Source of the DNA: a bacterium
Lineage (GTDB): Bacteria > SM23-31
NCBI GenBank assembly: GCA_965249485.1
Contig: OZ252239.1
Coordinates: 770,445-834,444 of the forward strand
Reading direction: 5' to 3'
Length of the DNA: 64,000 bases
The translations under genes and the position numbers were made by a program. Below, piece after piece: positions 699 through 55,219 of the stretch. Each line of letters begins with the position of its first letter. Within the stretch, counting starts at the first letter, position 1. A model generated the notes under the pieces. That model made no database searches, was not told the DNA's origin, and worked only from the letters and a program-made list of their open reading frames with translations.

Positions 699-1058
699 GT
701 GATTATATTTAACCATATGGTTAAATATTCTACCAACACACTCAATGCAACATTCGGAGCACTTGCCGATCCGACCCGGAGAGCAATACTGCAGCGTCTT
801 GCAGGCGGTGAACAAACCGTTATGGAACTTGCAGTACCGTTTGAAATGTCTCTCCCTGCTGTGTCCAAGCATCTCCGGGTTCTTGAACATGCCGGACTTT
901 TGATTCAGATAAAGGATGGCAGGATCCGTCGGTGCCGTCTTGTTGCGAAACCGATGAAAGAAGCGTCAAAATGGATTGAACACTACAAAACGTTCTGGGA
1001 AGCACAGTTCGATTCATTAGAGCAGTTCTTCATCAAAAACCAAAAAAAGGATAAATAA
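699..1058 (+). CDS. arsR: ArsR/SmtB-family metalloregulatory transcriptional repressor; alternative start at 717
   Basis: HTH signature LADPTRRAILQRLAGGEQTVMELAVPFEMSLPAVSKHLRVLEHAGLL. 119 aa. TAA stop. Confidence 0.85.
   Translation: MIIFNHMVKYSTNTLNATFGALADPTRRAILQRLAGGEQTVMELAVPFEMSLPAVSKHLRVLEHAGLLIQIKDGRIRRCRLVAKPMKEASKWIEHYKTFWEAQFDSLEQFFIKNQKKDK
705..728. promoter_or_regulatory. Perfect 24-bp palindrome ATATTTAACCAT|ATGGTTAAATAT overlapping the arsR start region; putative ArsR/SmtB operator for autoregulation
   Basis: 12+12 inverted repeat read directly from the sequence. It is centred on an in-frame ATG (717-719) of the ArsR ORF, about 10 bp downstream of a TTGACA motif at 683-688. 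Confidence 0.5.
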
Positions 1059-1059
1059 A

Positions 1060-1512
1060 ATGGACGCAACCATAAATATCTCCGATACATCACTCCAATT
1101 GAAGAGGACATTTCCGGTACCCTGCGAAAAAGTTTTTGATGCCTGGAAAGATCCCGAAAAACTCCGGCAATGGTTCGGCCCGAATAAATTTACTGTACCC
1201 GAAATTGAGGTCGATTTCCGTGTTGGTGGGTCCTATAGTGTTATTATGCAGTCACCTGAAGGTGAACAACACCATGTGGCCGGTTCATATCAGGAGATTA
1301 TCGAAAACAAAAAGATTGTCAAGACATGGATTTGGCAAAATGGTGCAATGGCAGGAGTAGAGACGACGGTTACGATTGAGTTTAATGCACTCGATGATAA
1401 TACCGAAGTTGTTCTGACACATGAAGGATTTCCGAATGAGGACGCTGCCGGCCATCACAATAAAGGCTGGACAAGTATTTATGATAATCTCGAACAGTTT
1501 TGCAAACAATGA
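1060..1512 (+). CDS. SRPBCC-family (Aha1/AhSA1-like) protein, commonly co-operonic with ArsR regulators
   Basis: KVFDAWKDPEKLRQWFGP ... VDFRVGGSYSV ... TWIW pattern typical of Aha1-domain SRPBCC proteins. Starts 2 nt after the arsR stop. Ends with TGA. Confidence 0.8.
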   Translation: MDATINISDTSLQLKRTFPVPCEKVFDAWKDPEKLRQWFGPNKFTVPEIEVDFRVGGSYSVIMQSPEGEQHHVAGSYQEIIENKKIVKTWIWQNGAMAGVETTVTIEFNALDDNTEVVLTHEGFPNEDAAGHHNKGWTSIYDNLEQFCKQ

Positions 1513-3070: not shown

Positions 3071-5506
3071 TTACATTTTGAATTGCTTCATCGATAGAGA
3101 ATTGCTCACCACCGATATTGAACTCATCGCCATCGCCGCCGCAGCGATCATCGGATTGAGAAGAAATCCGGTTAGAGGATAAAGGACTCCCGCAGCAACA
3201 GGAATACCAATAATATTGTAGATAAACGCAAAAAAAAGGTTTTGTTTGATTTTTTTCATAGTGTATGAACTCAAAGTGAGCGCACGGCCGACATCGGTTA
3301 CATTGTCTTTGATGAGAACAATATCCCCCGTTTCGATCGCAACATCAGTACCCGATCCGAGAGCTATGCCGACATCTGCCTGAGCCAGAGCCGGTGCATC
3401 ATTGATTCCGTCACCTGCCATAGCCACAGTGTGTCCCTTCTCCTGCAATTGCTTGATTACCTCCGCTTTCTCCTCAGGCAGCACTTCCGCAATGACCGTA
3501 TCGATTCCGACTTCACGGGCAATTGCGTTTACCGTCAGTTTATTGTCTCCCGACAATAGGACAACATCGATATTACTGTCACGCAGTATTTTGACAGCAA
3601 CTGCAGCATCGTCTTTGATGGTATCGGCAACCGCAATAATTCCGGCTGCTTCATTGTTAACACCGAGTACCATGACGGTTTTTCCGTCAGATTCTAACCG
3701 GGAAATCTCCGAATGAAGGACATTGGTATTCAACGTGTGCTGCTCCAGGAAATGATTATTGCCGAGCAAAATATCATTATCCTTATAATGTGCCTGTATT
3801 CCCATCCCCGGAACTGCGGTAAATTCAGATGCAGAACCAAATGTTATTCCTGATTGTTCTGCTTTTCTGACAACCGATTCTGCCAGCGGATGCTCAGAAT
3901 TTTTTTCGACAGCCGCTGCAATTTCCAACAGTTCATCCTCGGTCATTTCGTTTATCGGAATCAGATCGGTTACCTCCGGATGTCCCTGTGTCAGCGTCCC
4001 TGTTTTGTCAAAAACAACGGTTGTGATTTTATGTGCCGTTTCAAGCGCTTCACCATTTTTAACTTGTATTCCATACTCTGCTCCCTTGCCAGTACCTACC
4101 ATGATTGCTGTCGGTGTAGCGAGCCCAAGCGCACAGGGGCAGGCAATTATCAACACCGATACAAAATTAACGAGTGCAAAGATCAAAGATGGTTCCGGAC
4201 CAAACGTGTACCAAATAAGAAATGTCATTCCGGCGATTCCGAATACGACCGGAACAAAGATAGATGCAACTTTGTCCGACAGTCGCTGAATCGGTGCTTT
4301 GCTTCCCTGAGCTTGTTCAACGAGTTTGATGATCTGAGCAAGCAGTGTGTCGCTTCCGACTTTCAACGCCTTAACACGGAGAGCACCGTTCTTATTGATT
4401 GTGGCGGCGATAACGGAATCACCTTCGCTTTTTTCGACCGGAATCGGTTCACCTGTCACCATCGATTCATCCACTGTTGAACGGCCGCTCAGCACAATGC
4501 CATCCGCTGGGAACTTCTGTCCCGGCTTTACAAGAACAATATCATCAACCAGCACATTTTCAATTGGTACCAGCTGTTCCTTTCCGTCCCGCTCAACATA
4601 CGCTGTCTGTGCCTGCAGTCCCATAAGCTTTTTGATAGCTTCCGACGTTTTTCCTTTTGCTCGTGCTTCGAGGAATCTGCCGAATAAAATAAGCGTAATA
4701 ATAACCGCTGCCGTATCATAATAGACAGCCTGCGATACTTCAGGAATCCACTGCGGCACAAACGTCACAATCGTACTAAAAAAATATGCTGCACTTGTCC
4801 CGAATGCAATCAGAGTGTTCATATCGGCCCTACCATATTTGAAAAGGCTTCTGAGCCCACGATAAAAGCGCTTCCCGCCATAGAATTGCACCGGTGTTGT
4901 CAAAAGAAATAAAATGTATAATACAGTCTGCCGTTCAATGTCTGCAAGCAGGGGGATAAAGGTGTGAAAACTGAATAAGAGGATAATAACGGTCAAGATA
5001 CTACTAATAAGAAGGGTATTTTTAAGTGTGTTGATTTCACGATTTTGTGCTGTTTGTTGAGTGTTTTCGGATGAGTCGTATTCTATAGCCGTATACCCGG
5101 CTTCCTCAATCGCCTTTTTGATTTCGGTACTCGTTAGAACAATAGGTTCGTATTGTATGGTGGCTAAACTGTTACCGTATGATACCGAAACAGATTCAAT
5201 GCCAGGTAAGTCTTCGAGAGATCTGCGGATAACTCCTTCGCAGTGCGACGATTCCATGCCGATGATTTTGAAGGAGAGTTTTCCGGAAAGTAAATCAGAA
5301 GGTGCGGGAGTATATCCGGCATCTTTAATCGCTTTGACCAGTGTGGTCAGATCACATATTGTTTCATCGTAGCGAACCGTTGCCTTAACTGTCGCAAGAT
5401 TAACACTTGCCTCTTCCACACCGGGCACATTATTCAGTGCTTTTTCGATTACGGAAACACACGATGCGCAATGCATGTCCTGGATGACAAATTCCTGAAC
5501 AGCCAT
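3071..5506 (-). CDS. copA: Copper-translocating P1B-type ATPase with two N-terminal HMA domains
   Basis: 811 aa. [14 protein letters not shown] and [16 protein letters not shown] motifs, CPC transmembrane motif ([12 protein letters not shown]), DKTGTLT phosphorylation motif, [10 protein letters not shown] hinge. TAA stop. Confidence 0.95.
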
Positions 5507-5725: not shown

Positions 5726-6983
5726 TCACAAAGGTAACTTTTTTCGAAATTATTCGGTCTTGTGATTTTAAAACTATTAACTAGACCACTCCGGCAGCAA
5801 CGTTTCCCGAATCCGTTTTACCGTTCCACTTGACTGTGTGGATACCCTGTCCAAACTTATTCTCAGTTATTGTACTCACGAGCTGTCCGGTAACGTTAAA
5901 GATCTGTATAGAAACATCTGTCTGTTTTGCGAGAGAAAATTGTATTGAGACCGATGGATTAAACGGATTGGGGTACGCTTCGATAAGACCAAAATCTTCG
6001 GGAATAATAACATTTTCAGACTCATCTATATTGGTTACTAATCCTTTGAACACAGCTACATAATCATACACCTCGGAAGATACGAGAGAAAAATTATTTT
6101 TGTCACTATTGTGTTCAATAGAGCCATTGAACGGTATCCAAGCATTTGTATTCCCATCCCAATAGCAGAGAATCAATTCATCATCTTGTATAGACAGACT
6201 GTCGAGTAAGTTTTGACTGTAATGAAATCTTTGGGTTATACCCGTCTCAAAATCCATGTGACCGGAGCCCCAATGTCCCATATGACCTCCCATAATATGT
6301 CCACCTCAGTTACCATGCATCATATCATTGCCGGATTCATTGATAAATTCAAAATGATACCCGAGTACCATCTCACGGTCGGGACTTTCAGGCATGAGGT
6401 CTAATGGCAGCCTGTTCATATCGACAAAATATTTGTTTCCCCACATACCTCCAAAACCCATATGTCCCGGTGGAAAATTGATAAAACTTGCGCTATCAAC
6501 CGGACAATATATGTAAGTGGAATCAGTTATTACTCTATCAATCCAACTTCCCGACCAATGGTTCCCTTCGGAGAGATCCCGCCAAATAGCACCATTTAAC
6601 TCCTCGACGATAATAACCACGTAACCGTTAAATGAATCATGGACTTTGCCGGATACAGTTATTGATTCCCCATGATTGGGACAGTTAATCGTTTCTGGTG
6701 TATACCACCATGGTCCGAAAGCAAGCATGTAGTCGGTGTTTAAATCAAGATTTGTGTCGAGAAAATAGTGAGGCATAAATCCATTTTGCTCAATAATTAC
6801 GGATCCGGAAACAGTCGTATCCGGCAAGTTCTCTCCAAAGAAATAGTTATATCCATTTTCATGAATACCGCTGCTATGCTGTGGCTCAAAATGGTATTCA
6901 GACTCCTGAGCTCCAGCAGTAGTCGCTAATAAACAAATACAGATAACTGTAACAGATATGGCCCTTTGTATTGCGAGTAACAT
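5721..6983 (-). pseudogene. Secreted Met/His-rich putative copper-binding protein with a T9SS C-terminal sorting domain; the reading frame is interrupted by in-frame TGA (6306-6308) and TAG (5781-5783)
   Basis: ORFs 6306..6983 and 5781..6293 are in the same frame, separated only by TGA: ...GNDMMHGN*GGHIMGGHMGHWGSGHMDFE. The same frame continues past TAG at 5781 as LIVLKSQDRIISKKVTFVK*, the typical KK.hhhK end of T9SS CTDs. N-terminal signal peptide. CTD motif YPNPFNPSVSIQFSL. Confidence 0.55.
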
Positions 6984-7109: not shown

Positions 7110-10100
7110 TTACTTAGTTTTCATTAACGTACGTTTCAGGCTAATTTCTCTGACAATTGCATAGATGACCGGTATAACGACCAATGTCAGAATAGTCGAT
7201 GTCACTATGCCACCGATCATCGGTGCGGCAATCCGCTTCCAGACTTGGGATCCTGCTCCGGTACTCCACAGAATCGGAACGAGTGCAAATAAGGTTGTCG
7301 TGACCGTCATCATTTTCGGGCGGACTCTATCAACTGCTCCGGACATAACCGCCTGGTAGATATGAGAAATATTGAAATCCGTCCCTTTCTCTTTTTTCAG
7401 AGCGTCATACGCGTGATCGATATAAATAATCATCACAATTCCTGTTTCTGCTGCTAAACCTGCAAGTGCAATAAATCCAACCCACACCGCTACGCTCATG
7501 TTGTAATCGAGAAAATACATCAGCCAGATTCCACCGACGAGCGCAAAGGGAACAGAGAGCATGACTATGAGTGATTCCCACACATTTTTAAAATTGAGAT
7601 AGAGCAGTACGAAAATAATCAGCAGCGTGATGGGGACAACAAATTTCAGACGTTTACTCGCCCTCTCGATATATTCCCACTGTCCGCTCCAGATTAGGTT
7701 ATATCCGGATGGAATTGCAACACGGGACTCAATTATCGGCCGCGCCTGTTCAACATAGGTTCCAACATCGATATCCCGCAGATCGATATAGACCCAGACG
7801 TTCGGACGTGAATTTTCGCTTTTTATAACGGGAGGACCTTTTTTTATGTTGATCGACGCAAGCTGTGCAAGTGGAATCTGTTCACCCCGCGGTGTTGGAA
7901 TGAGAACCCGTTTCAACTTTTCAGGTGTATCGCGGAATTCTCTCCCATACCGGAGGTTGATCGGGTACCGTTCAAGCCCTTCGACACTCTGGGAAATATT
8001 CATACCGCCGATAGCAGTCTGAATAACATCCTGCACATCGCTGATCGAGAGTCCGTACCGGGCGATCTCATCCCGGTTTATATCGATATTGAGATAATTG
8101 CCTCCTACCGATTTTTCGGAATAAGCGCTTGCCGTACCGGGAATGTCCTTCGCAACGGCAGCGATTTGTCTACCGAGTTCTTCGAGAATCGCAAGGTCCT
8201 GTCCCGCAATTTTTATTCCGATTGGTGTCTTGATTCCTGTTGACAGCATATCGATTCGCGTCTTGATCGGCATTGTCCACGCATTGGCCAACCCCGGAAA
8301 CTGAATTGCAGCATCGAGCTCCTGAATCAATTTGTCCGGGGTCATTCCCGGACGCCACTGATCTTCAGGTTTCAGGGTGATGGTTGTCTCGATCATGCTG
8401 AGCGGAGCGGGATCAGTTGCAGTTTCAGCCCTGCCAATCTTCCCGAAAACCGTTTCAACCTCCGGAAAACTTTTTATGATTTTATCGGTTTGCTGGAGAA
8501 GTTCCCGCGCTTTGGTGATAGAAATACCCGGATCGGTTGTCGGCATGTAGAGCAAATCACCTTCATAGAGCGGTGGCATGAATTCAGTGCCGAGTTGATT
8601 ATACGGAAAAATTGTAACGAGCAGTATTACCATGGAGGCCAGAAGCGTTAATTTCTTGAATTTGAGAACCGTCTTTATTACCGGTCTGTATAGCCAGATT
8701 AATGCCCTGCTGATTGGATTTTTTGATTCAGGCCTAATGTTACCTCGAATCAGAAGCCCCAGCAAGACAGGAATCAATGTAATTGCCAGTATAGAAGATG
8801 ATCCCAATGCAAAGGTCTTCGTAAATGCCAGTGGTCTAAAAAGACGCCCCTCTTGGGCTTGTAAGGTAAATACTGGAAGAAACGAAAGGGTTACAATCAG
8901 TAACGAGTAAAACAGGGCGGGACCGACTTCTTTTGCAGAATCGGCAATAATCTTCCAGTGCTCTTTTTTCCCGGTATCCCGTTCAAGATGTTTATGAGCA
9001 TTCTCGATCATAACGACTGCAGCATCGACAAGCACACCGATTGAAATCGCTATGCCTCCCAGAGACATAATATTTGCATTAATATTCGTGTAATTCATAA
9101 TGATAAAAGAAATAAGAATACTTAACGGGAGTGAAAGAACCGCAACCAATGCACTACGGATATGGAGTAAAAAGAGTAAACAAACTATCGCGACAACGAT
9201 ACTTTCTTCCATCAATGTTCCGGTAAGTGTGTCGATAGCTCTACGGATAAGATTGGTCCTGTCATACACCGGTAATATTTCCACGCCTTCAGGCAGTCCG
9301 GTTTTTATCTCATCGAGTTTCTTTTTTACATTGTCTATCACAGTAAGAGCGTTTTCACCATACCGCATTACAACAATCCCGCCGACCGTCTCACCGATGC
9401 CATCCCGCTCTACAAGTCCTCTCCTGATTTCCGGTCCGAGGCCGACAGTCCCGAGTTGACGGAGCAGAATCGGAATACCATTTTGATCGACACTTACCGC
9501 GATGTTTTTCAAATCATCTATTGACTGAATATACCCGTTACTGCGAACCATGAATTCAGTTTCGGCAAGTTCCAGTAACCGACCGCCGACTTCGTTATTA
9601 TTCCGCTGGATCGCACGACGGACAGTACTCAGCGGCAGGCCGAAAGCCATGAGCTTATCGGGATCGACCTCAACCTGATACTGTTTTACAAATCCACCGA
9701 TGCTTGCTACTTCCGCAACACCGGGAACGGATGCGAGTTCATAGCGCAGAAACCAGTCCTGAATCGAGCGGAGTTCGGCAAGGTTATGCCTGTCACTTTC
9801 GACAACATATTCAAACGCCCATCCCACACCGGTTGCATCGGGCCCAAGCTGCGGAGTTACTCCTGCTGGCAGCCGGGTCGATACATAATTCAGATACTCA
9901 AGGACACGGCTCCGTGCCCAGTACATATCGGTCCCATCTTCGAAAATGATATAGACGAATGATATTCCGAAAAACGAGTATCCTCGGACAGTTTTCGCAA
10001 AAGGCACCGACAGCATCTGTGTTGTGAGCGGATAGGTGATCTGGTTTTCGACGATTTCCGGAGCCTGTCCGGGATATTCTGTCAGAATGATAACTTGAAC

Positions 10101-10232
10101 ATCACTCAAATCGGGAATCGCATCGAGAGGTATGTTAACCGCCGAATATATTCCGATAATTATTACAAAAAGAGCCGCTATAATAACCAGCAGTCTGTTT
10201 TTTATGGAAGCATCGATTATTTTCTCGAGCAT
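7110..10232 (-). CDS. cusA: Heavy-metal efflux RND transporter, CusA/CzcA (HME-RND) family
   Basis: 1040 aa, 12-TM RND architecture, high similarity to CusA/CzcA throughout. TAA stop. 4-nt gap to the upstream adaptor gene. Confidence 0.95.
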   Translation of the reverse strand: MLEKIIDASIKNRLLVIIAALFVIIIGIYSAVNIPLDAIPDLSDVQVIILTEYPGQAPEIVENQITYPLTTQMLSVPFAKTVRGYSFFGISFVYIIFEDGTDMYWARSRVLEYLNYVSTRLPAGVTPQLGPDATGVGWAFEYVVESDRHNLAELRSIQDWFLRYELASVPGVAEVASIGGFVKQYQVEVDPDKLMAFGLPLSTVRRAIQRNNNEVGGRLLELAETEFMVRSNGYIQSIDDLKNIAVSVDQNGIPILLRQLGTVGLGPEIRRGLVERDGIGETVGGIVVMRYGENALTVIDNVKKKLDEIKTGLPEGVEILPVYDRTNLIRRAIDTLTGTLMEESIVVAIVCLLFLLHIRSALVAVLSLPLSILISFIIMNYTNINANIMSLGGIAISIGVLVDAAVVMIENAHKHLERDTGKKEHWKIIADSAKEVGPALFYSLLIVTLSFLPVFTLQAQEGRLFRPLAFTKTFALGSSSILAITLIPVLLGLLIRGNIRPESKNPISRALIWLYRPVIKTVLKFKKLTLLASMVILLVTIFPYNQLGTEFMPPLYEGDLLYMPTTDPGISITKARELLQQTDKIIKSFPEVETVFGKIGRAETATDPAPLSMIETTITLKPEDQWRPGMTPDKLIQELDAAIQFPGLANAWTMPIKTRIDMLSTGIKTPIGIKIAGQDLAILEELGRQIAAVAKDIPGTASAYSEKSVGGNYLNIDINRDEIARYGLSISDVQDVIQTAIGGMNISQSVEGLERYPINLRYGREFRDTPEKLKRVLIPTPRGEQIPLAQLASINIKKGPPVIKSENSRPNVWVYIDLRDIDVGTYVEQARPIIESRVAIPSGYNLIWSGQWEYIERASKRLKFVVPITLLIIFVLLYLNFKNVWESLIVMLSVPFALVGGIWLMYFLDYNMSVAVWVGFIALAGLAAETGIVMIIYIDHAYDALKKEKGTDFNISHIYQAVMSGAVDRVRPKMMTVTTTLFALVPILWSTGAGSQVWKRIAAPMIGGIVTSTILTLVVIPVIYAIVREISLKRTLMKTK

Positions 10233-10235
10233 GAT

Positions 10236-12173
10236 TTACAGCCTCCCTTGTTCGATGGAAAAATCATCGGCTGAATCAACATAGAGGACTTCATGGCTGC
10301 TTTCGAACGATTGTAATTCTTCAGACTGGTTGTCCATTAACTCTTTGAGATTCATTCCGCATCGGGGACACGTTCCACCGGATGATGAAAACACCAGATC
10401 CTCTTCCATCGGACAGGTATGTGTTACAGCGCCATCACCTATCACCAGGACAGTTTTCTCTGTCCATGAAGCGTATTCGGTGAGCGGATTAATATCGACA
10501 TTCGTAAGGTCGGATATTCTTATAATATCGCGGCCGGCAATGAGGTTATCAACTTTTGCCGTCTCTTCCGGTTCCATAGCATAAAGCGGCATACCGCAGC
10601 GGGGGCAGAATCCCTCTCCGTCAGAAAAGACAAGGTCTTCTTCCATGATGCAAAAATGAGTTACGTGCCCTTCGCCGAGAATAATCGCCGATTGGTTGCC
10701 CATTTTCTGCGATGTTATTTCCTCATGAGTGTGCTCTCCAACTTCTTCCTGCACCGGTTTACGTGCGGATGTTTGCTTCGACAGCATTTTCATCTGTGCT
10801 TCACGCAGCCGGCTCTCGGAATCGATGAGAAACTGTGCCGAAGTGACGACCCGTTCGCCACCTTCCAGTCCTTCGACAACAGTATAATAGTCATCCGACT
10901 CAATTCCGGTGACTACTTCACGCGGTTCAAATTTTCCTCCTCCGAGATCGAGAATGACAACACTCCGTTCCCCTGATATAATGACCGAACTCACCGGGAT
11001 GATTAAATCCTCCCGCTCTGATTGTGATGCTATTTCAACGTTTACATACATATCAGGTTTCAGCAGCATATCCGGATTGTCAAATTCAATCCGGACCCTG
11101 ATCGTTCTGGTTTGTGCATCGAGATAGGGATAAATAAACGATATAGTACCAGTGAATTCTTTACCCGGATAATACGTTAGGGTCATGGTTGCCTGCTGAC
11201 CGATTTTTACCCAGGGAAGTTCGTATTCATAGATTTCCGCAAGCATCCAGACATGTGACAGGTCAGCAATTTCATACAAATGCGTATTCGGGATGATGCG
11301 TTCACCACCCGTAATCATTCTGTGTCTGACAATGCCGCTAATAGGAGAGAACAGGGTCATATTTTTAGTGGCCTGCTGCGTATCTTTGAGGTGAGCGATC
11401 TGCTCGGGAGTAATATCCCACAACTCAAGACGTTTCCGTGTCGATTCAAGCAGATCGTTCGATTGCTGAGCGACTTCGGAATATGCAGCTCCCTCAAAAT
11501 AGTCGGTGAATCTCAGCGCCTGCAGGTATTCCTCCTGTGTGGTGACGAGATCGGGACTATAAATATCGATCAGCGGATCGCCCTTGGTTACCTGTTGTCC
11601 CGCGAAGCCGACATACAATTTCTCAGCCCATCCCGATACTTTTGTGGTGACACCCATTATGCGGGTTTCGTCATAGACAATACGTCCGACAGCCCGAATA
11701 GTACGGGAAAGTTGTTTCCGCTCGACCGGAACAGATTGTACGCCAATATTCTGAACGGTAACAGGATCGATCGATATCTGACCGGGTGCAGGACTACTGG
11801 TAATATTTCTCCTCACAAGATTCATGTTGCAAATTGGGCATAATCCCGGCTCGGTTTCTTGGACATTCGGATGCATTCCGCAGGTATAGTAATAATCAAC
11901 ACCGGTAACGCCTTCAAGATTGAGTTGAGATGGTGCCTGAGCTCCGGGAAGTTCATCATCATACACCGGAACGAGGTCCATACCCATCGGTGATTTTCCG
12001 GGATTTTCAGATACATAAGCCGGGTCCATCGGTGCGACCCAGTAAGCAACTGTTCGTCCTTCTGCATTGTCACCGTCAGCACCCAAAAAATCATACCGGT
12101 GAAAAACCCACTGGACGGCAATCACAATTATCAGAATGGTGATCCATGTACTGGTGCGTAATTTTCGTGACAT
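10236..12173 (-). CDS. cusB: RND efflux periplasmic adaptor (CusB/CzcB family) with three CxxC heavy-metal-binding domains, one N-terminal and two tandem C-terminal
   Basis: 645 aa. Membrane-fusion core, N-terminal YYTCGMHPNV...GLCPICNMNL, and C-terminal repeats HFCIMEEDLVFSDGEGFCPRCGMPL and HTCPMEEDLVFSSSGGTCPRCGMNL. Confidence 0.9.
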   Translation of the reverse strand: MSRKLRTSTWITILIIVIAVQWVFHRYDFLGADGDNAEGRTVAYWVAPMDPAYVSENPGKSPMGMDLVPVYDDELPGAQAPSQLNLEGVTGVDYYYTCGMHPNVQETEPGLCPICNMNLVRRNITSSPAPGQISIDPVTVQNIGVQSVPVERKQLSRTIRAVGRIVYDETRIMGVTTKVSGWAEKLYVGFAGQQVTKGDPLIDIYSPDLVTTQEEYLQALRFTDYFEGAAYSEVAQQSNDLLESTRKRLELWDITPEQIAHLKDTQQATKNMTLFSPISGIVRHRMITGGERIIPNTHLYEIADLSHVWMLAEIYEYELPWVKIGQQATMTLTYYPGKEFTGTISFIYPYLDAQTRTIRVRIEFDNPDMLLKPDMYVNVEIASQSEREDLIIPVSSVIISGERSVVILDLGGGKFEPREVVTGIESDDYYTVVEGLEGGERVVTSAQFLIDSESRLREAQMKMLSKQTSARKPVQEEVGEHTHEEITSQKMGNQSAIILGEGHVTHFCIMEEDLVFSDGEGFCPRCGMPLYAMEPEETAKVDNLIAGRDIIRISDLTNVDINPLTEYASWTEKTVLVIGDGAVTHTCPMEEDLVFSSSGGTCPRCGMNLKELMDNQSEELQSFESSHEVLYVDSADDFSIEQGRL

Positions 12174-12211: not shown

Positions 12212-13534
12212 TTATAAACGCTGACCTGTCAGAAACTCCAGGTTTGCGATATTTTTCTTGTATTCCGTCAGCAATCGGTAATAATCGAGTTCAAATGTTA
12301 AGAGTGTAATCTGGTTGTTTAAAAGGGTCAGAAAATCGACCTTATTGACTTGATAACCAGAAATAGCTGAACTCAATGACTGTGTGGCCTGCGGAATAAT
12401 GACCTCATGAAGCAGTTGTATCCGTTCATCTGTCTCATCAAGTGAGGCGGTTACAACTGCGATTCGGGCGTCGTTCGAATTTTTCATATCCTTGTATGAA
12501 GATTCTGCCGCACGGACTTCTGCCAGTGCTTCTGAAACACCGTTGTCTTGTTTTCTACCGCTCCACAGCGGCAGATTTACCGAAAAATGTGCTGAAAGGA
12601 AATCCGGACGCTGTTGACGCTGCCCGTAGATTACGCCGAATGTCATGTCAGGCCAGTATTGTTTTCGTTTGAGTGATGATGCAATTTCTCTTCGGGCAAC
12701 CTCTTTTCGTGCTGCATTCAACATGGGCCGCCGTTCTGCCGATGTCTGCTGCAGTGTTGCAATATCGAGCGAAACGGAAGAATGAGTTAGTTCTTCTACA
12801 GGACCGATTAGTATGTCTATCGGCCTGTTCAGGAGTGCATTAAGTTCAGCAGTGGAGGCTTCACGATTGTTCCGGTAGCTTATCAGTTTGTCGAGCAGTT
12901 TACTCATCTCAACCTGCGCTTTCAGCACATCCTGTTGTAGCCCTTCACCGACTTCATATTTTTTCGATGCAATTGAAATAAAATCGTTTAGTATCTGCTT
13001 ATTTTTGAGCGTGATAGCAACCGATTTGTCAATCAGGTAGATATCAAAGAACGCCAACGAAATGTCTTTAATTACAGCGTTTCTCGTGTCGACAGCCGTT
13101 AGTCCCGCGATGTCGAATGCTTCCTCGGCTATCTGCTCTTTCAATGATGATATACCGGGAAAAGGGATAGTCTGCTTCAGGGAAATCTGTTTTTGCGTCA
13201 TAGGTTCTACTGTAAATCCTGCATCAGTCAAAGGGAAATTTGCGATGTTCAGGCTCAAGCTTGGATCAGGCCATGCGCCTGCCTGCGGAATGCGCAGTTG
13301 TGCCGATTCACTTTTTTGATCAGCGGCGAGTATCTCAGGATTATCACGGAGCGCAGCTTCAATCAGGCTTTCAAGTGCTACTACGGCACCATTGTTGTTT
13401 TCGACTGAATACGTTTTTGTCGTACCTGCTAAAGCAAAGTCGATAACAGCGTTATGCTGTTGAAATGCATAGCCGGTGCGGGTCAAAACGGAAACCAACA
13501 TGATAACGGCAGTCAAAACTTTTTTTGATCGCAT
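12212..13534 (-). CDS. cusC: TolC-family outer-membrane efflux protein (CusC-like)
   Basis: 440 aa, signal peptide, two TolC-type coiled-coil repeats. Immediately upstream of cusB on the same strand. Confidence 0.85.
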   Translation of the reverse strand: MRSKKVLTAVIMLVSVLTRTGYAFQQHNAVIDFALAGTTKTYSVENNNGAVVALESLIEAALRDNPEILAADQKSESAQLRIPQAGAWPDPSLSLNIANFPLTDAGFTVEPMTQKQISLKQTIPFPGISSLKEQIAEEAFDIAGLTAVDTRNAVIKDISLAFFDIYLIDKSVAITLKNKQILNDFISIASKKYEVGEGLQQDVLKAQVEMSKLLDKLISYRNNREASTAELNALLNRPIDILIGPVEELTHSSVSLDIATLQQTSAERRPMLNAARKEVARREIASSLKRKQYWPDMTFGVIYGQRQQRPDFLSAHFSVNLPLWSGRKQDNGVSEALAEVRAAESSYKDMKNSNDARIAVVTASLDETDERIQLLHEVIIPQATQSLSSAISGYQVNKVDFLTLLNNQITLLTFELDYYRLLTEYKKNIANLEFLTGQRL

Positions 13535-13702
13535 TGTATCTGTTCCTGGATATTATTAATGAATACTGGTTTCAACCGGGATATATACTACCGGTTGAGA
13601 GATATACACTATCAATACTCGCGCAGGGTAAATGAACAAACATTACTCCCGTACTTTCGTAGAGTAGGTATAATGGTGTAATAATAGAAAAGGGGGTGCC
13701 GC

Positions 13703-14179
13703 TTAAATCAGAAAAGCAGCATTAAGGAGAAAATATGGTGGTTGAGATGTCTGTATATTGTGAAAAACAGACGAATGTGTGATGCGTTGTTGAAAATCTT
13801 CGTGTTGATATGACGCTAATGAAGCGGAAAAAATCGTTTTTGTGGAATGGTACGTTTCAGTCCTGACAATGAGCTGATCAACATTGTCAGTATCGGAGAT
13901 AGTACTCAGTGACGCGCAGCAGCATGAACCGTCGTCAGCATAGTGGACTGTTGTAGAAAAATCGATCGGTTTTGTGTCCGGTTCGGTGCAGCATGAATCT
14001 TCAGCCGGTTCGGGAGCTTCCACCGGAATATCTGCGCAGTACCCGGCAGATTCGTTGATTTCCGAATGATCACTGCAGGCATTGCCGCTCACTCCACAGG
14101 GACAGACAGCTAATGCAAATCCGGAGCTTGCAAAACAGAGGACGAGTAAAACCGCTACTATTTTTTTCGACGTTTTCAT
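13703..14179 (-). CDS. Cys-rich small secreted protein of unknown function, first gene of the cus operon; start at MKTSKK (the ORF could extend to 14212)
   Basis: Signal peptide MKTSKKIVAVLLVLCFASSGFALA followed by CPCGVSGNACSDHSE...CADIP...DSCCTEPD...DGSCCCASL. No recognisable family. Confidence 0.45.
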   Translation of the reverse strand: MKTSKKIVAVLLVLCFASSGFALAVCPCGVSGNACSDHSEINESAGYCADIPVEAPEPAEDSCCTEPDTKPIDFSTTVHYADDGSCCCASLSTISDTDNVDQLIVRTETYHSTKTIFSASLASYQHEDFQQRITHSSVFHNIQTSQPPYFLLNAAFLI

Positions 14180-14768
14180 TTGTTTACTATTGTAAAACAA
14201 TTTCGAACACAAAAAAACTACAACAACCGTGCCATTGTCAAAATCGGCACATCGTGTGCGTAACTACAGGTTAGATGCCTCAAAATATAAAAGGTTACAA
14301 TTAAATTTGCAAGAACAATTATTATAAATAAGAATTTGTGTACGTTTTCTTCATTGATCGTTCACTGGTATGGTATAGTTCCCGTCTAGCACACCGAAGT
14401 CACTGCCCCAGCTTCATTGGTGATCTCAATTGTGTCTAATGATGTGGTCTCTTTAAATTAATTGTACAAATATGTAAGTAATTTAGTATTTCTTTATTAT
14501 TGAAAACTGAAAAAAGGCATAAATCGTTCCATTATTCAAAATATCATACAGTATTGGCCAACTGAAAAACGGAACTTGACAATGGGAAATATGTTTTGTC
14601 AGTAAGCGACATGCAAATCATTAATGATTATAATGCGAGTTCTTGTAAGAGGAAAATGTCCTTTTCATAAATAGTAGGCTTATCATCTCACGTTCTACCG
14701 TCAAGAAGTCTTCCTGCTTTCTTTTTATTGGTGCCGCCTCATTGCATAAAGAAAAATTATTACTCAAA

Positions 14769-30117: not shown

Positions 30118-30470
30118 ACCCGGAGCGTGGAAAGATGGCCGCGTTTCCCGATTATTTGGGAGATGAGGAAAGTCCGAACTCCACAGGGCAGGATGCCCCG
30201 TGAAAACGGGGTCGTTCCGGTTCACCGGAATGCAGGAAAGTGCCGCAGAAAATATACCGCCCCGTTCCTCGGAATGGGGTAAGGGTGAAAAGGCGAGGTA
30301 AGAGCTCACCGCGTTTTCGGTAACGGAAACGGCAGGGTAAACCCCATCCGGAGCGAGACCAAATAGAGGAGAAGAGGCTGCCCGTCTCATTTGACTCCCG
30401 GGTAGGTCGCATCAGATAAATGGCCATCCGCGACAGAATTCGGCTTACCGAGCGCTTCGGGTTTAGTATA
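30118..30470 (+). ncRNA. rnpB: RNase P RNA (bacterial type A)
   Basis: Conserved blocks GAGGAAAGTCCG, AGGGTGAAAAGG...GGTAAGAGCTCACC, GGTAAACCCCATCCGGAGC...CAAATAG, ACAGAATTCGGCTTAC, all in canonical order. No credible ORF across it. Confidence 0.85.
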
Positions 30471-49901: not shown

Positions 49902-50147
49902 TATGCCAATCCGGGATTGTGCAGAAAACTTTTAAATAATTGTAATGTTACTGATTGTTTAAAAATGCAATGCAGAGATTGCAACGTTGCAATTTCTGGG
50001 ACTAAATAATTAACGTATGTTCAAATCCCGCTTTTAGAAATTGCTGTACAAATAACTTGCTATTATAAACAGCAAATAGTATATTATAGTAATAATCGAC
50101 ACAAGGAAAGCACTATAAGAAAAATTTAATATAGATATAAAAAGAGC

Positions 50148-50222
50148 GCATTACGGGGTGGTTTTAGAAACCTGAGATTAAACCCTTTGAACCTGATCTG
50201 GGTAATTCCAGCGGAGGAAAAT
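50148..50222 (+). promoter_or_regulatory. TPP (thiamine pyrophosphate) riboswitch aptamer
   Basis: ACGGGGTGG...CTGAGA...ACCCTTTGAACCTGATCTGGGTAATTCCAGCGGAGGAAA matches THI-box conserved blocks (GGGGUGC, CUGAGA, ACCC..GAACCUGAUCUGGnUAAUACCAGCGnAGGGAA). Confidence 0.85.
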
Positions 50223-50249
50223 GCACATTGCACATTTTTTCAGGAATCG

Positions 50250-54389: not shown

Positions 54390-54765
54390 TATTAATCTTT
54401 TTCATTGTAAGGTTCGGTATCAGCGAAAAAAGGTGCCCCGTTTTAAACACTATGTGCAAATATGGACAGCCCGGTATGCATTATTACACATACCCGAATG
54501 TGATAATTAGTTATATTTGATTTGCGTAAGCATGAACTGGCTTCAATATAACCGATTGATTCATTGGGATGTAATACAATCGCAAAATAGATACCAGGAA
54601 ATTTCTCATGTTGTATCCCGGAAAAACTTTGCGATGGATAAACAATATTTTGTCATGTTGTTCGCAATACCGGGTGATTGTTGTAAACTTTTTTGATTGA
54701 TTTTTTTGAAAGAAATATTTATATTCTGTGTCTCTTAATATGTGCCTGAGCACTTCGGGGTGTAG

Positions 54766-54843
54766 CGCAGTCCGGTTAGCGCACCTGCTTTGGGAGCAGG
54801 GGGTCGGAGGTTCAAATCCTCTCACCCCGACCAGCGTTCACAG
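54766..54843 (+). tRNA. tRNA-Pro (anticodon TGG), CCA encoded
   Basis: Manual cloverleaf: acceptor CGGGGTG/CACCCCG, D-stem GCGC, anticodon stem CCTGC/GCAGG with loop TTTGGGA, T-arm GGAGG-TTCAAAT-CCTCT. Confidence 0.85.
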
Positions 54844-54893
54844 TCTGGATGAAATGAAAACCGCGCTCACGAATGCTAAGGGACTCGATGGAT

Positions 54894-54967
54894 GCGCCAG
54901 TAGCTCAACTGGACAGAGCAACGGCCTTCTAAGCCGTAGGTTGAAGGTTCGAGTCCTTCCTGGCGTA
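54894..54967 (+). tRNA. tRNA-Arg (anticodon TCT)
   Basis: Acceptor GCGCCAG/CTGGCGT, D-stem GCTC/GAGC, anticodon stem ACGGC/GCCGT with loop CTTCTAA, T-arm GAAGG-TTCGAGT-CCTTC. Confidence 0.85.
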
Positions 54968-55027
54968 CACTTTTAAACACGCCAAAGCACATTAAGGGGA
55001 ATGAGTTTCTGCCGAGTAAGATTTTAC

Positions 55028-55102
55028 GGTGGGAGTAGCTCAGTTGGTTAGAGCACTGGATTGTGGTTCCAGGGGTCGCGGGTTCGATTCCCGTCTTCCA
55101 CC
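55028..55102 (+). tRNA. tRNA-His (anticodon GTG) with G-1
   Basis: G-1 plus acceptor GTGGGAG/CTTCCAC, discriminator C, anticodon stem CTGGA/TCCAG with loop TTGTGGT, T-arm GCGGG-TTCGATT-CCCGT. Confidence 0.85.
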
Positions 55103-55147
55103 CTAAAGGCAGATCGGTCATCCCCACCCAACATACAAAGCTTACAT

Positions 55148-55219
55148 GTCCCCTTCGTCTAGTGGTTAGGACTCATGGTTTTCGACCATGCAACAGGGGT
55201 TCGACTCCCCTAGGGGACG
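55148..55219 (+). tRNA. tRNA-Glu (anticodon TTC)
   Basis: Acceptor GTCCCCT/AGGGGAC, anticodon stem CATGG/CCATG with loop TTTTCGA, T-arm AGGGG-TTCGACT-CCCCT. Confidence 0.85.

Follow-up and report, generated by a model that had tools for sequence, protein, structure and literature searches.

The stretch of DNA analysed here, called the window, is 64,000 nucleotides (nt) of the bacterial contig OZ252239.1 (assembly GCA_965249485.1, GTDB lineage SM23-31), and all positions given below are those of the window. Its minus strand carries a heavy-metal efflux operon of the cus type, in which the gene order is leader, OEP, CusB, CusA; two extra open reading frames (ORFs) and a copper P1B-ATPase follow on the same strand. 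The present study concerns the leader, a gene at 13703..14179 encoding an exported, acidic, Cys-rich protein of 158 amino acids (aa). The gene was recognised from its ORF and translation, from homologues at the matching operon position and from the ratio of non-synonymous to synonymous substitutions (dN/dS). It was found that the leader gene is real and conserved, that it occupies the leader position, and that it carries the motifs of a class of exported leader proteins together with a fixed distance between a Cys-Cys (CC) motif and the C-terminus. Judged by its architecture, the protein belongs to the exported leaders with metal motifs that head efflux operons, as a strongly diverged member confined to one lineage. 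The first-pass annotation had described it as the first gene before tolC-cusB-cusA on the same strand, and domain matches confirm OEP, CusB and CusA.

The leader ORF starts with an ATG at 14179 and ends with a TAA at 13703-13705. The protein begins with MKTSKK, continues with IVAVLLVLCFASSGFALA and then reaches an A-L-A|V cleavage-type site, after which the mature chain would start as VCPCG. By inspection, residues 1-24 (MKTSKKIVAVLLVLCFASSGFALA; codons 14108..14179; predicted cleavage ALA|VC) have a basic n-region, a 19-residue hydrophobic core and the ALA|V site. As the leader's single hydrophobic stretch, closed by an A-L-A site, this segment is likely to be a Sec signal peptide, in line with the earlier claim of a secreted protein. 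A lipoprotein reading was ruled out, since position -1 holds V or M and a lipobox is missing.

The protein contains 10 Cys, of which C15 lies in the signal peptide and nine lie in mature residues 26-88 (C26, 28, 35, 48, 63, 64 and 86-88). Over residues 26-88 the share of Cys is about 14%, as compared to 0.78% in the long ORFs of the window (about 18-fold). The motifs quoted in the first-pass annotation (CPCGVSGNACSDHSE, CADIP, DSCCTEPD and DGSCCCASL) are all present, although its count of about 12 Cys in 60 residues was too high. The mature chain is acidic, with 19 Asp and Glu against 7 Lys and Arg; the protein has no Trp, and the initiator is its sole Met. Family alignment picks out three Cys motifs. 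C26-P-C28 (14096..14104), which forms mature residues 2-4, is invariant in 4/4 family members, and C63-C64 (13988..13993) is likewise invariant. C86-C87-C88 (13916..13924) lies within an invariant DG-x-CCC-x-SL block, 73 residues from the C-terminus. The chain ends in a conserved tail, P147-P-Y-F-L-L-N-A-A-F-L-I158 (13706..13741), which combines a Pro-Pro (PP) pair with a hydrophobic end and is kept at 32% overall identity.

Downstream of the leader on the same strand lies an outer-membrane factor of the OEP/TolC family (12212..13534; PF02321, 157 bits). It is followed by a CusB-type periplasmic adaptor with three Cys-based HMBD domains (10236..12173; HlyD_D23 268 bits, HMBD three times, CusB PRK09783 201 bits) and by a heavy-metal resistance-nodulation-division (RND) pump of the CusA/CzcA family (7110..10232; ACR_tran 807 bits, TIGR00914 1262 bits against a cut-off of 701). 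The copper-translocating P1B-type ATPase has two HMA domains (3071..5506; TIGR01511 621 bits, cut-off 397). A Pfam scan found no CusF in the operon of the window. The spacer from the leader stop to the OEP start is 168 nt long (13535..13702); its first 80 nt are C-rich and G-poor, and a sequence resembling a Shine-Dalgarno (SD) site, AGGAA, stands 9 nt before the ATG. The length of this spacer is conserved at 165-173 nt across all lineages of the leader's family.

A motif scan placed a sigma-54-type promoter, TGGCACGGTTGTTGT (-24/-12), at 14220..14234 on the minus strand, 41-55 nt 5' of the leader ATG. It is the sole match of this type in the 64 kb window on both strands, where 0.14 would be expected, and it is kept in the related loci L167 and L003 and has one mismatch in L001. 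The leader start at 14179 fits this predicted promoter, from which the 5' untranslated region would be about 30 nt long and would exclude an upstream TTG. No sigma-54 enhancer-binding protein (GAFTGA motif) is encoded in the window, and generic sigma-70 and terminator scans gave results at chance level.

Conservation of the leader and its distant relatives

Homologues of the leader were sought among 5.8 billion proteins by word-indexed searching, starting from the sequence alone and from a profile, and by a full HMMER scan of 1.84 billion representatives. The family consists of only 4 clusters: the protein of the window, two at 83% identity and one at 32%. Its members are 158, 158, 156 and 155 aa long. 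The earlier claim of a lineage-specific protein agrees with this result, since the leader's own sequence family is confined to one lineage. Co-occurrence upstream of related cus operons was also looked at, and every family member lies directly upstream of OEP-CusB-CusA, homologues being found at this same position in three other lineages besides the window. At 32% identity the signal peptide, C26-x-C28, H38, C63-C64, DG-x-CCC-x-SL, VRT and the tail P..FLL..AFLI-stop are all kept. C35 and C48 are not kept at this distance, so that 7/9 mature Cys are conserved. Pfam and NCBIfam gave nothing at threshold for the whole protein, its halves or its relatives, and a PDB profile search with the leader gave no match. 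At curated thresholds, therefore, the protein has no recognisable family, as had been stated before, but its architecture does match a known class of leader proteins.

Among close relatives the dN/dS of the leader is 0.26-0.43 overall and 0.14 over the Cys-rich codons 25-64; the corresponding values are 0.06 for cusA and 0.26 for cusB. On account of these ratios and of the motifs kept at 32% identity, the comparison of sequences indicates that the leader is translated and is under purifying selection. The dS of the leader against L001 is 0.18, below that of cusA (0.45) and of the ATPase (0.48), and it is particularly low in codons 1-24, 65-100 and 141-158. This low dS may reflect constraint at the RNA level, or small numbers. 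In the lineage at 32% identity (L003, L168-L172) a B12-binding radical S-adenosylmethionine (radical-SAM) gene (DUF4070) and a 65-aa ORF lie just 5' of the leader, at about 1.1-2.6 kb within the locus. Neither occurs in the window, L001 or L167, and they are probably unrelated to the leader.

The sole NCBIfam match of the leader is HYC_CC_PP (NF047658, PF26622), with 15.4 bits and an E value of 0.02 over residues 82-152. Genuine members of that family, taken from Bacteroidota plasmids, reach 46.7 and 63.3 bits. HYC_CC_PP is a family from Bacteroidota with uncharacterised function, and no paper mentioning it was found. For comparison, 184 HYC_CC_PP proteins and 80 genome loci were recovered. 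In 78/80 of these loci a CusA-type gene lies directly downstream on the same strand, 84-217 nt away, and because of this arrangement HYC_CC_PP itself is a leader gene of heavy-metal RND operons.

Alignment of the profile of the leader's family with that of HYC_CC_PP by hhalign gave a probability of 74-88% and E values of 3e-6 to 3e-5 over residues 1-71. In this alignment SSG....C26-P-C28 stands opposite SSTG....H-x-C, so that C26 falls on the invariant His and C28 on the invariant Cys. The H-x-C motif that follows the N-terminal hydrophobic segment in HYC_CC_PP is itself absent from the leader, which has C26-P-C28. In addition, when the leader profile was run over 11,473 six-frame ORFs of the fetched loci, nearly all top non-self matches were HYC_CC_PP proteins (best E 0.002). 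From these profile comparisons the two families are probably distantly related.

The two kinds of protein are also alike in layout. Both are about 140-160 aa long and have an N-terminal hydrophobic segment ending in SSxG, followed by a thiol/imidazole motif with two-residue spacing. In both, a CC lies 69-75 residues from the C-terminus and is followed by a PP and a hydrophobic tail ending in FL[IL]-stop, and both are encoded by the first gene of a heavy-metal RND operon with an intergenic spacer of 100-200 nt. The PP with a hydrophobic tail ending in FL[ILC]-stop, by which HYC_CC_PP proteins are recognised, is present in the leader of the window. On the other hand, the leader has CPC for HxC, an extra CC motif and an acidic, Pro-rich linker. 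It ends in PPYFLLNAAFLI-stop, whereas the tail of HYC_CC_PP is SPPLxxRDIPVLVQSFL[IL]-stop, and its PP is 12 residues from the end instead of 17. It lacks a second hydrophobic stretch, while the HYC_CC_PP model has a helix at 97-112, and the gene downstream is OEP rather than CusA. In its architecture the leader belongs with CutF, CopL, CruR and CzcI, the CutF-like or DUF2946 class of leaders of metal-efflux and copper operons, of which HYC_CC_PP is the annotation used for the Bacteroidota branch; it would be a variant with Cys for His (CPC for HxC) and with a second CC motif.

Metagenome contigs were scanned with the CusA of the window, which gave 80 loci at 57-70% identity, 51 of them with a readable upstream region. 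The order OEP-CusB-CusA is found in nearly all 80. An ORF was regarded as leader-type when it had 95-190 aa, a strongly hydrophobic N-terminus, at least 3 Cys and at least 8 Cys, His and Met together. Such an ORF lies upstream of OEP in 21/51 readable loci. These leaders have two types of tail. One type resembles that of the window's leader (SPPLYLLNAVFII, PPPLRALFCTYLI, ...QALLATFLI and APLYTLHCTFLI); the other is the RPP type, typical of DUF2946/CopL, of which one leader matches CopL at 29 bits and another DUF2946 at 17 bits.

The leaders of L087/88, L090, L091, L101, L106 and L111 are like that of the window in operon position, signal peptide, Cys clusters with CC(C) among them, a distance of 70-74 residues to the C-terminus, and tails. 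They differ from it in that only the motifs and the tail can be aligned, and many of them are richer in His and Met. The tail of the window's leader matches that of L091 with a BLASTP E of 4e-4. A hidden Markov model (HMM) made from the CC-to-end segments of six other leaders gave the protein of the window as its first non-training match among the 11,473 ORFs (E 0.011). The profile of the leader's own family does not retrieve these metagenomic leaders. At the leader position of other related loci a CsoR-type repressor, a sigma-54 activator or kinase, DUF3347 or, once, a true CusF is found. In L135 and L157 the sigma-54 activator stands directly upstream of the cus genes in place of a leader.

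Distance from the thiol motif to the stop codon and RNA of the spacer

The distance from the last CC to the C-terminus is 73 residues in the leader of the window and 70 in its relative P0004. Among the metagenomic leaders it is 74 in L091, 72 in L088, 74 in L090, 71 in L101, 70 in L106 and 71 in L111. It is 75 in the HYC_CC_PP protein of Haliscomenobacter, and 33 other HYC_CC_PP proteins have 73.3 +/- 1.3. In nine divergent leader lineages that cannot be aligned with one another the distance is 70-75, with a standard deviation of 1.75. The standard deviation in the same nine lineages is 11.7 for total length, 11.7 for the stretch from the N-terminus to CC, 4.0 for CC to PP and 3.7 for PP to the end. 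The last two segments vary while their sum stays fixed, and therefore the insertions and deletions compensate each other. In the RPP-type leaders the distance is 46-56. A fixed domain size is not an obvious explanation, because AlphaFold2 (AF2) shows no confident fold in either family: models of the leader's family have a pLDDT of 33, those of 54 HYC_CC_PP proteins a pLDDT of 60 and a pTM of 0.23, and neither gives a usable fold. By our own estimate, about 72 residues roughly span the ribosomal tunnel and the SecYEG channel. A similar argument has been made for a spacing of 45 residues in the leader protein CutF, which is considered below (PMC9973294).

Regularities were also found in the RNA that follows the leader. 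In 33/37 HYC_CC_PP loci, nucleotides right behind the leader stop form at least 6 pairs with those right in front of the cusA start. This clamp has a mean of 10.8 closing pairs as compared to 4.7 in shuffles (Wilcoxon p 4e-7). It is made from 18 different arm sequences, and 17/37 loci are individually significant in a duplex test. The median distance is 5 nt from the stop to the beginning of the 5' arm, and 1 nt from the end of the 3' arm to the start. It should be noted here that this evidence consists of per-sequence folds compared with shuffles, as 16 spacers could not be aligned by MAFFT for RNAalifold. The layout is that expected if a ribosome at the end of the leader opens the cusA start site. 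The stop codon of the HYC_CC_PP leader is TAA in 70/78 loci (L006-L085).

In the leader region of the window Rfam gave no match. UUU CUG AUU stands unchanged as the last three sense codons in every lineage of the leader's family, and the last codons, UUUCUGAUU, are complementary to the SD-like AAUCAGGAA before the OEP gene. As a partner of the start region these codons come first in L003 (p 0.007) and second of 197 in L167 (p 0.043); in L001 the pairing is weaker (p 0.135). By analogy with CruR, the C-rich, G-poor beginning of the spacer would also suit Rho-dependent control.

Possible roles of the leader and neighbouring features

The control of heavy-metal RND pumps is usually ascribed to two-component or MerR-type regulators. 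Small exported leaders are a recently recognised second layer of control, and few of them have been studied (CutF, CruR, CopL and CzcI). CutF-like proteins were defined by Ozturk et al. (mBio 2023, PMC9973294) as proteins of fewer than 150 aa with a signal peptide and a PP among the last 15 residues, whose gene is followed within 1000 nt by another on the same strand. The 5,334 proteins found in that study fall, after normalisation for proteomes, 55% in Pseudomonadota and 40% in Bacteroidota, and the commonest downstream neighbours of their genes are OEP, CusA-type, CusB-type and CusF (PMC9973294). CutF senses periplasmic copper as a nascent exported chain; a stalling-like state is prolonged and a stem-loop at cutO's ribosome-binding site is opened (PMC9973294). 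CruR works via Rho and CopL acts in cis (PMC9973294). CzcI, encoded by the first gene of czcICBA, has been reported to quench the CzcCBA pump for Zn and Co (PMC10127602), and it has been placed among the CutF-like proteins despite lacking the C-terminal Pro motif (PMC9973294).

The leader of the window agrees with the CutF-like rules in its signal peptide (by inspection), its PP and its downstream gene, as OEP follows after the 168-nt spacer. Counted from the end, its P147-P148 stand at positions 12 and 11, and the PP of P0004 at 15 and 14. Like the CutF-like proteins, including CopL and CruR, it has a Sec-type signal peptide and a Cys metal motif, carries a Pro motif within 15 residues of its end and is encoded just upstream, on the same strand, of a metal-homeostasis gene, OEP being the commonest such neighbour. 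The differences lie in the motif and in the spacing. CutF of Rhodobacter capsulatus has CxxxC where the leader has CPC/CC/CCC, and the metal motif is about 45 residues from the C-terminus in CutF as against about 72 here. Most CutF-like genes have a spacer below 100 nt, whereas that of the leader is 168 nt; CruR, which works through Rho, has 162 nt.

Taken as a whole, a sensing or regulatory role of the leader, including routes to downstream expression other than the one outlined below, is the reading that we prefer, with a probability of about one half. The leader would sense Cu(I)/Ag(I) in the periplasm and so tune the amount or the activity of the pump. Binding and sensing of these ions, and action in cis, are putative, and Cu/Ag is the probable metal going by the family of the pump (CusA/CzcA), the HMBD domains and the copper ATPase nearby. 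A regulator is favoured over a chaperone because the characterised members of the class regulate, CutF, CruR and CopL in cis and CzcI by quenching its pump. The regulatory reading draws further on the leader's place at the head of the operon in the window and in all relatives, its agreement with the CutF-like rules apart from length, the links to HYC_CC_PP by sequence and by context, the leader-type ORFs of related cus loci with their similar tails, and the fixed distance from CC to the C-terminus. The RNA clamp of the HYC_CC_PP loci, the pairing of the last codons with the SD-like site in two of four lineages, and the want of a predicted fold that might otherwise account for the fixed length also speak for it.

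Among the mechanisms for this role a co-translational, cis-acting one is favoured, and is put forward tentatively by analogy with CutF. Here the leader would be exported co-translationally, as in the CutF type. When the ribosome is at the tail, PPYFLLNAAFLI-stop, the CCC motif about 72 residues back would have just emerged on the periplasmic side. Binding of metal at CCC and at the N-terminal CPC could then alter the dwell of the ribosome at the end of the leader ORF, and this occupancy would control the expression of OEP-CusB-CusA 168 nt downstream.

It is a more doubtful proposal that the leader, HYC_CC_PP and the unannotated cus leaders form one distinct class of co-translational periplasmic metal sensors. 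The hallmark of such a class would be a ruler of about 72 residues, measured between the CC thiol motif and the stop codon and kept by compensating insertions and deletions. Capture of metal by the just-exported CC would set the dwell of the ribosome on the tail and thereby gate translation of the RND efflux genes. In the HYC_CC_PP loci the gate would be the RNA clamp between leader stop and cusA start, and the version in the window would be an all-thiol variant (CPC/CC/CCC) from an uncultured lineage.

Several results weigh against the regulatory reading or against the relationships on which it leans. The 15.4 bits of the window's protein do not reach the HYC_CC_PP cut-off of 28 bits, its relatives P0002, P0003 and P0004 have no HYC_CC_PP match, and an HMM of the HYC_CC_PP tails alone misses the leader. 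With the signal peptide removed the hhalign score is 17.5, level with shuffled controls (up to 16.5); as the profile-profile homology is lost in this way, formal membership of the leader in HYC_CC_PP was dropped. The leader is longer, at 158 aa, than the CutF-like length rule allows (<150 aa). It gives no match to DUF2946 (PF11162) at E up to 10, a family on which CzcI itself scores 15.7 bits against a cut-off of 23.7, and it shows no similarity to CzcI (BLASTP E 2.5). The distance from CC to the C-terminus has exceptions, being 84 in L120, 91 in L125 and 103 in L112, and AF2 models of such low confidence leave room for a fold. At the RNA level the 5'-3' clamp is not significant in the leader's family (z -0.8 in the window), and RNAalifold on the spacer gave a weak, unconvincing consensus. 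In the window the pairing of the tail codons with the SD-like site is weak, ranking 31 of 200 (p 0.30), because it is broken by an extra C. Moreover, the sigma-54-type promoter shows that transcriptional control exists independently of the leader, and by the precedent of CzcI a leader of such a class can act in trans on the pump.

In the first-pass annotation the protein was read as a periplasmic metallochaperone or thiol sponge that replaces CusF, in which case the nine mature Cys would buffer Cu(I)/Ag(I) or deliver it to CusB/CusA. Much of what that reading was built on stands. The protein is thiol-rich, conserved, exported and first in the operon; nine Cys fall within 63 residues of an acidic chain with no predicted fold, and codons 25-64 show the strongest purifying selection in the gene (omega 0.14). 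The three Cys-based HMBD domains of CusB could accept the metal. The operon of the window is without CusF, and a true CusF (PF11604, 77 bits) sits at the same upstream position in the related locus L161. The leader and CusF are alike in being small periplasmic proteins of cus operons, but the leader has no CusF similarity: there is no Pfam match, no Met/His/Trp site, no predicted OB fold, no Trp, and no Met beyond the initiator. Only 7/9 mature Cys are kept at 32% identity, and the characterised proteins of such architecture are regulators that are rapidly degraded after export. The PP...FLI tail beside the stop and the compensated distance from CC to the C-terminus would serve no such role; a metal sponge does not need them, and they therefore count against it. 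The role of a CusF substitute is less likely, though to be taken seriously as a rival, and that of a regulator is the better supported.

Another less likely but serious alternative is that the leader modulates the pump in trans, in the manner of CzcI of Cupriavidus metallidurans, docking with its metal on OEP-CusB-CusA to restrain or release efflux. Both are small exported Cys proteins encoded by the first gene of an OEP-adaptor-RND operon, the position of the leader being that of czcI in czcICBA. CzcI, which has Cys and His, has a regulatory rather than a transport role: quenching of CzcCBA for Zn/Co has been reported (PMC10127602), and it counts as CutF-like even though its C-terminal Pro motif is missing. 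The conserved hydrophobic C-terminal tail could be a docking peptide, and no convincing cis RNA element was found in the window. However, the two proteins have no sequence similarity. CzcI acts in trans and is without the C-terminal PP motif and tail, whereas the leader retains a PP and a tail of the kind typically found in cis-acting members. A role linked to translation is indicated by the fixed distance to the stop, together with the RNA clamp of the HYC_CC_PP loci.

It is very improbable that the leader ORF arose by chance or is decaying within a long 5' leader, or that it encodes the precursor of a Cys-rich ribosomally synthesised and post-translationally modified peptide (RiPP) unrelated to the pump. 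The missing family match and predicted fold would agree with this, the unusually low dS (0.18 against 0.45 for cusA) could reflect RNA constraint, and in the L003/L168 lineage a B12-binding radical-SAM gene does lie just upstream. Against it, the homologue at 32% identity still shares the reading frame, length, signal peptide, Cys motifs and tail; dN/dS stays under 1, with 0.14 in the Cys-rich part, and a Sec signal peptide is no RiPP leader. The window, L001 and L167 lack the radical-SAM neighbour, and the reading as a RiPP or radical-SAM substrate was ruled out because this neighbour occurs in one lineage only.

On the preferred regulatory reading, a better annotation of the gene would be a putative metal-sensing leader of the cus operon, and not a hypothetical protein or a novel chaperone. 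The layer of leader proteins extends to lineages where no model detects it. Two regularities emerge from the comparison, namely the fixed distance from CC to the stop and the RNA clamp in the HYC_CC_PP loci. If these hold, leaders could be annotated by architecture rather than by sequence, and co-translational sensing would become testable on efflux operons.

The other genes of the locus differ between lineages in several ways. In the CusB of the window one HMBD is N-terminal and two lie in a C-terminal extension of about 150 residues, while in the L003 lineage CusB has 476 aa and a single HMBD, and cusA is followed by a gene for a separate HMBD protein of 193 aa. The OEP gene of the window (12212-13534) is only about 60% identical to that of L001 (10645-12000), with a dN of 0.28 and saturated dS. 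The flanking genes are closer, the leader being 83% (protein), cusB 86% and cusA 94% identical. Because OEP is far more diverged than the leader, cusB and cusA around it, this pattern suggests that the outer-membrane factor was replaced by recombination. The two ORFs between cusA and the copper ATPase (5781-6983, minus strand) have no family match, and the second has a C-terminal sorting domain of the type IX secretion system (T9SS). Both are absent from L001, in which the ATPase comes directly after cusA.

On the strand opposite to the copper ATPase, and about 1.5 kb past it, lies a pair made up of an ArsR-type helix-turn-helix gene and a 150-aa SRPBCC/AHSA1-like ORF (699-1512, plus strand; assignments by inspection). 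Elsewhere on the plus strand of the window Rfam identified a class A RNase P RNA at 30121-30463 (241 bits), a thiamine pyrophosphate (TPP) riboswitch at 50143-50236 (65.6 bits) before a 794-aa ORF, and a cluster of four tRNA genes at 54756-55219.

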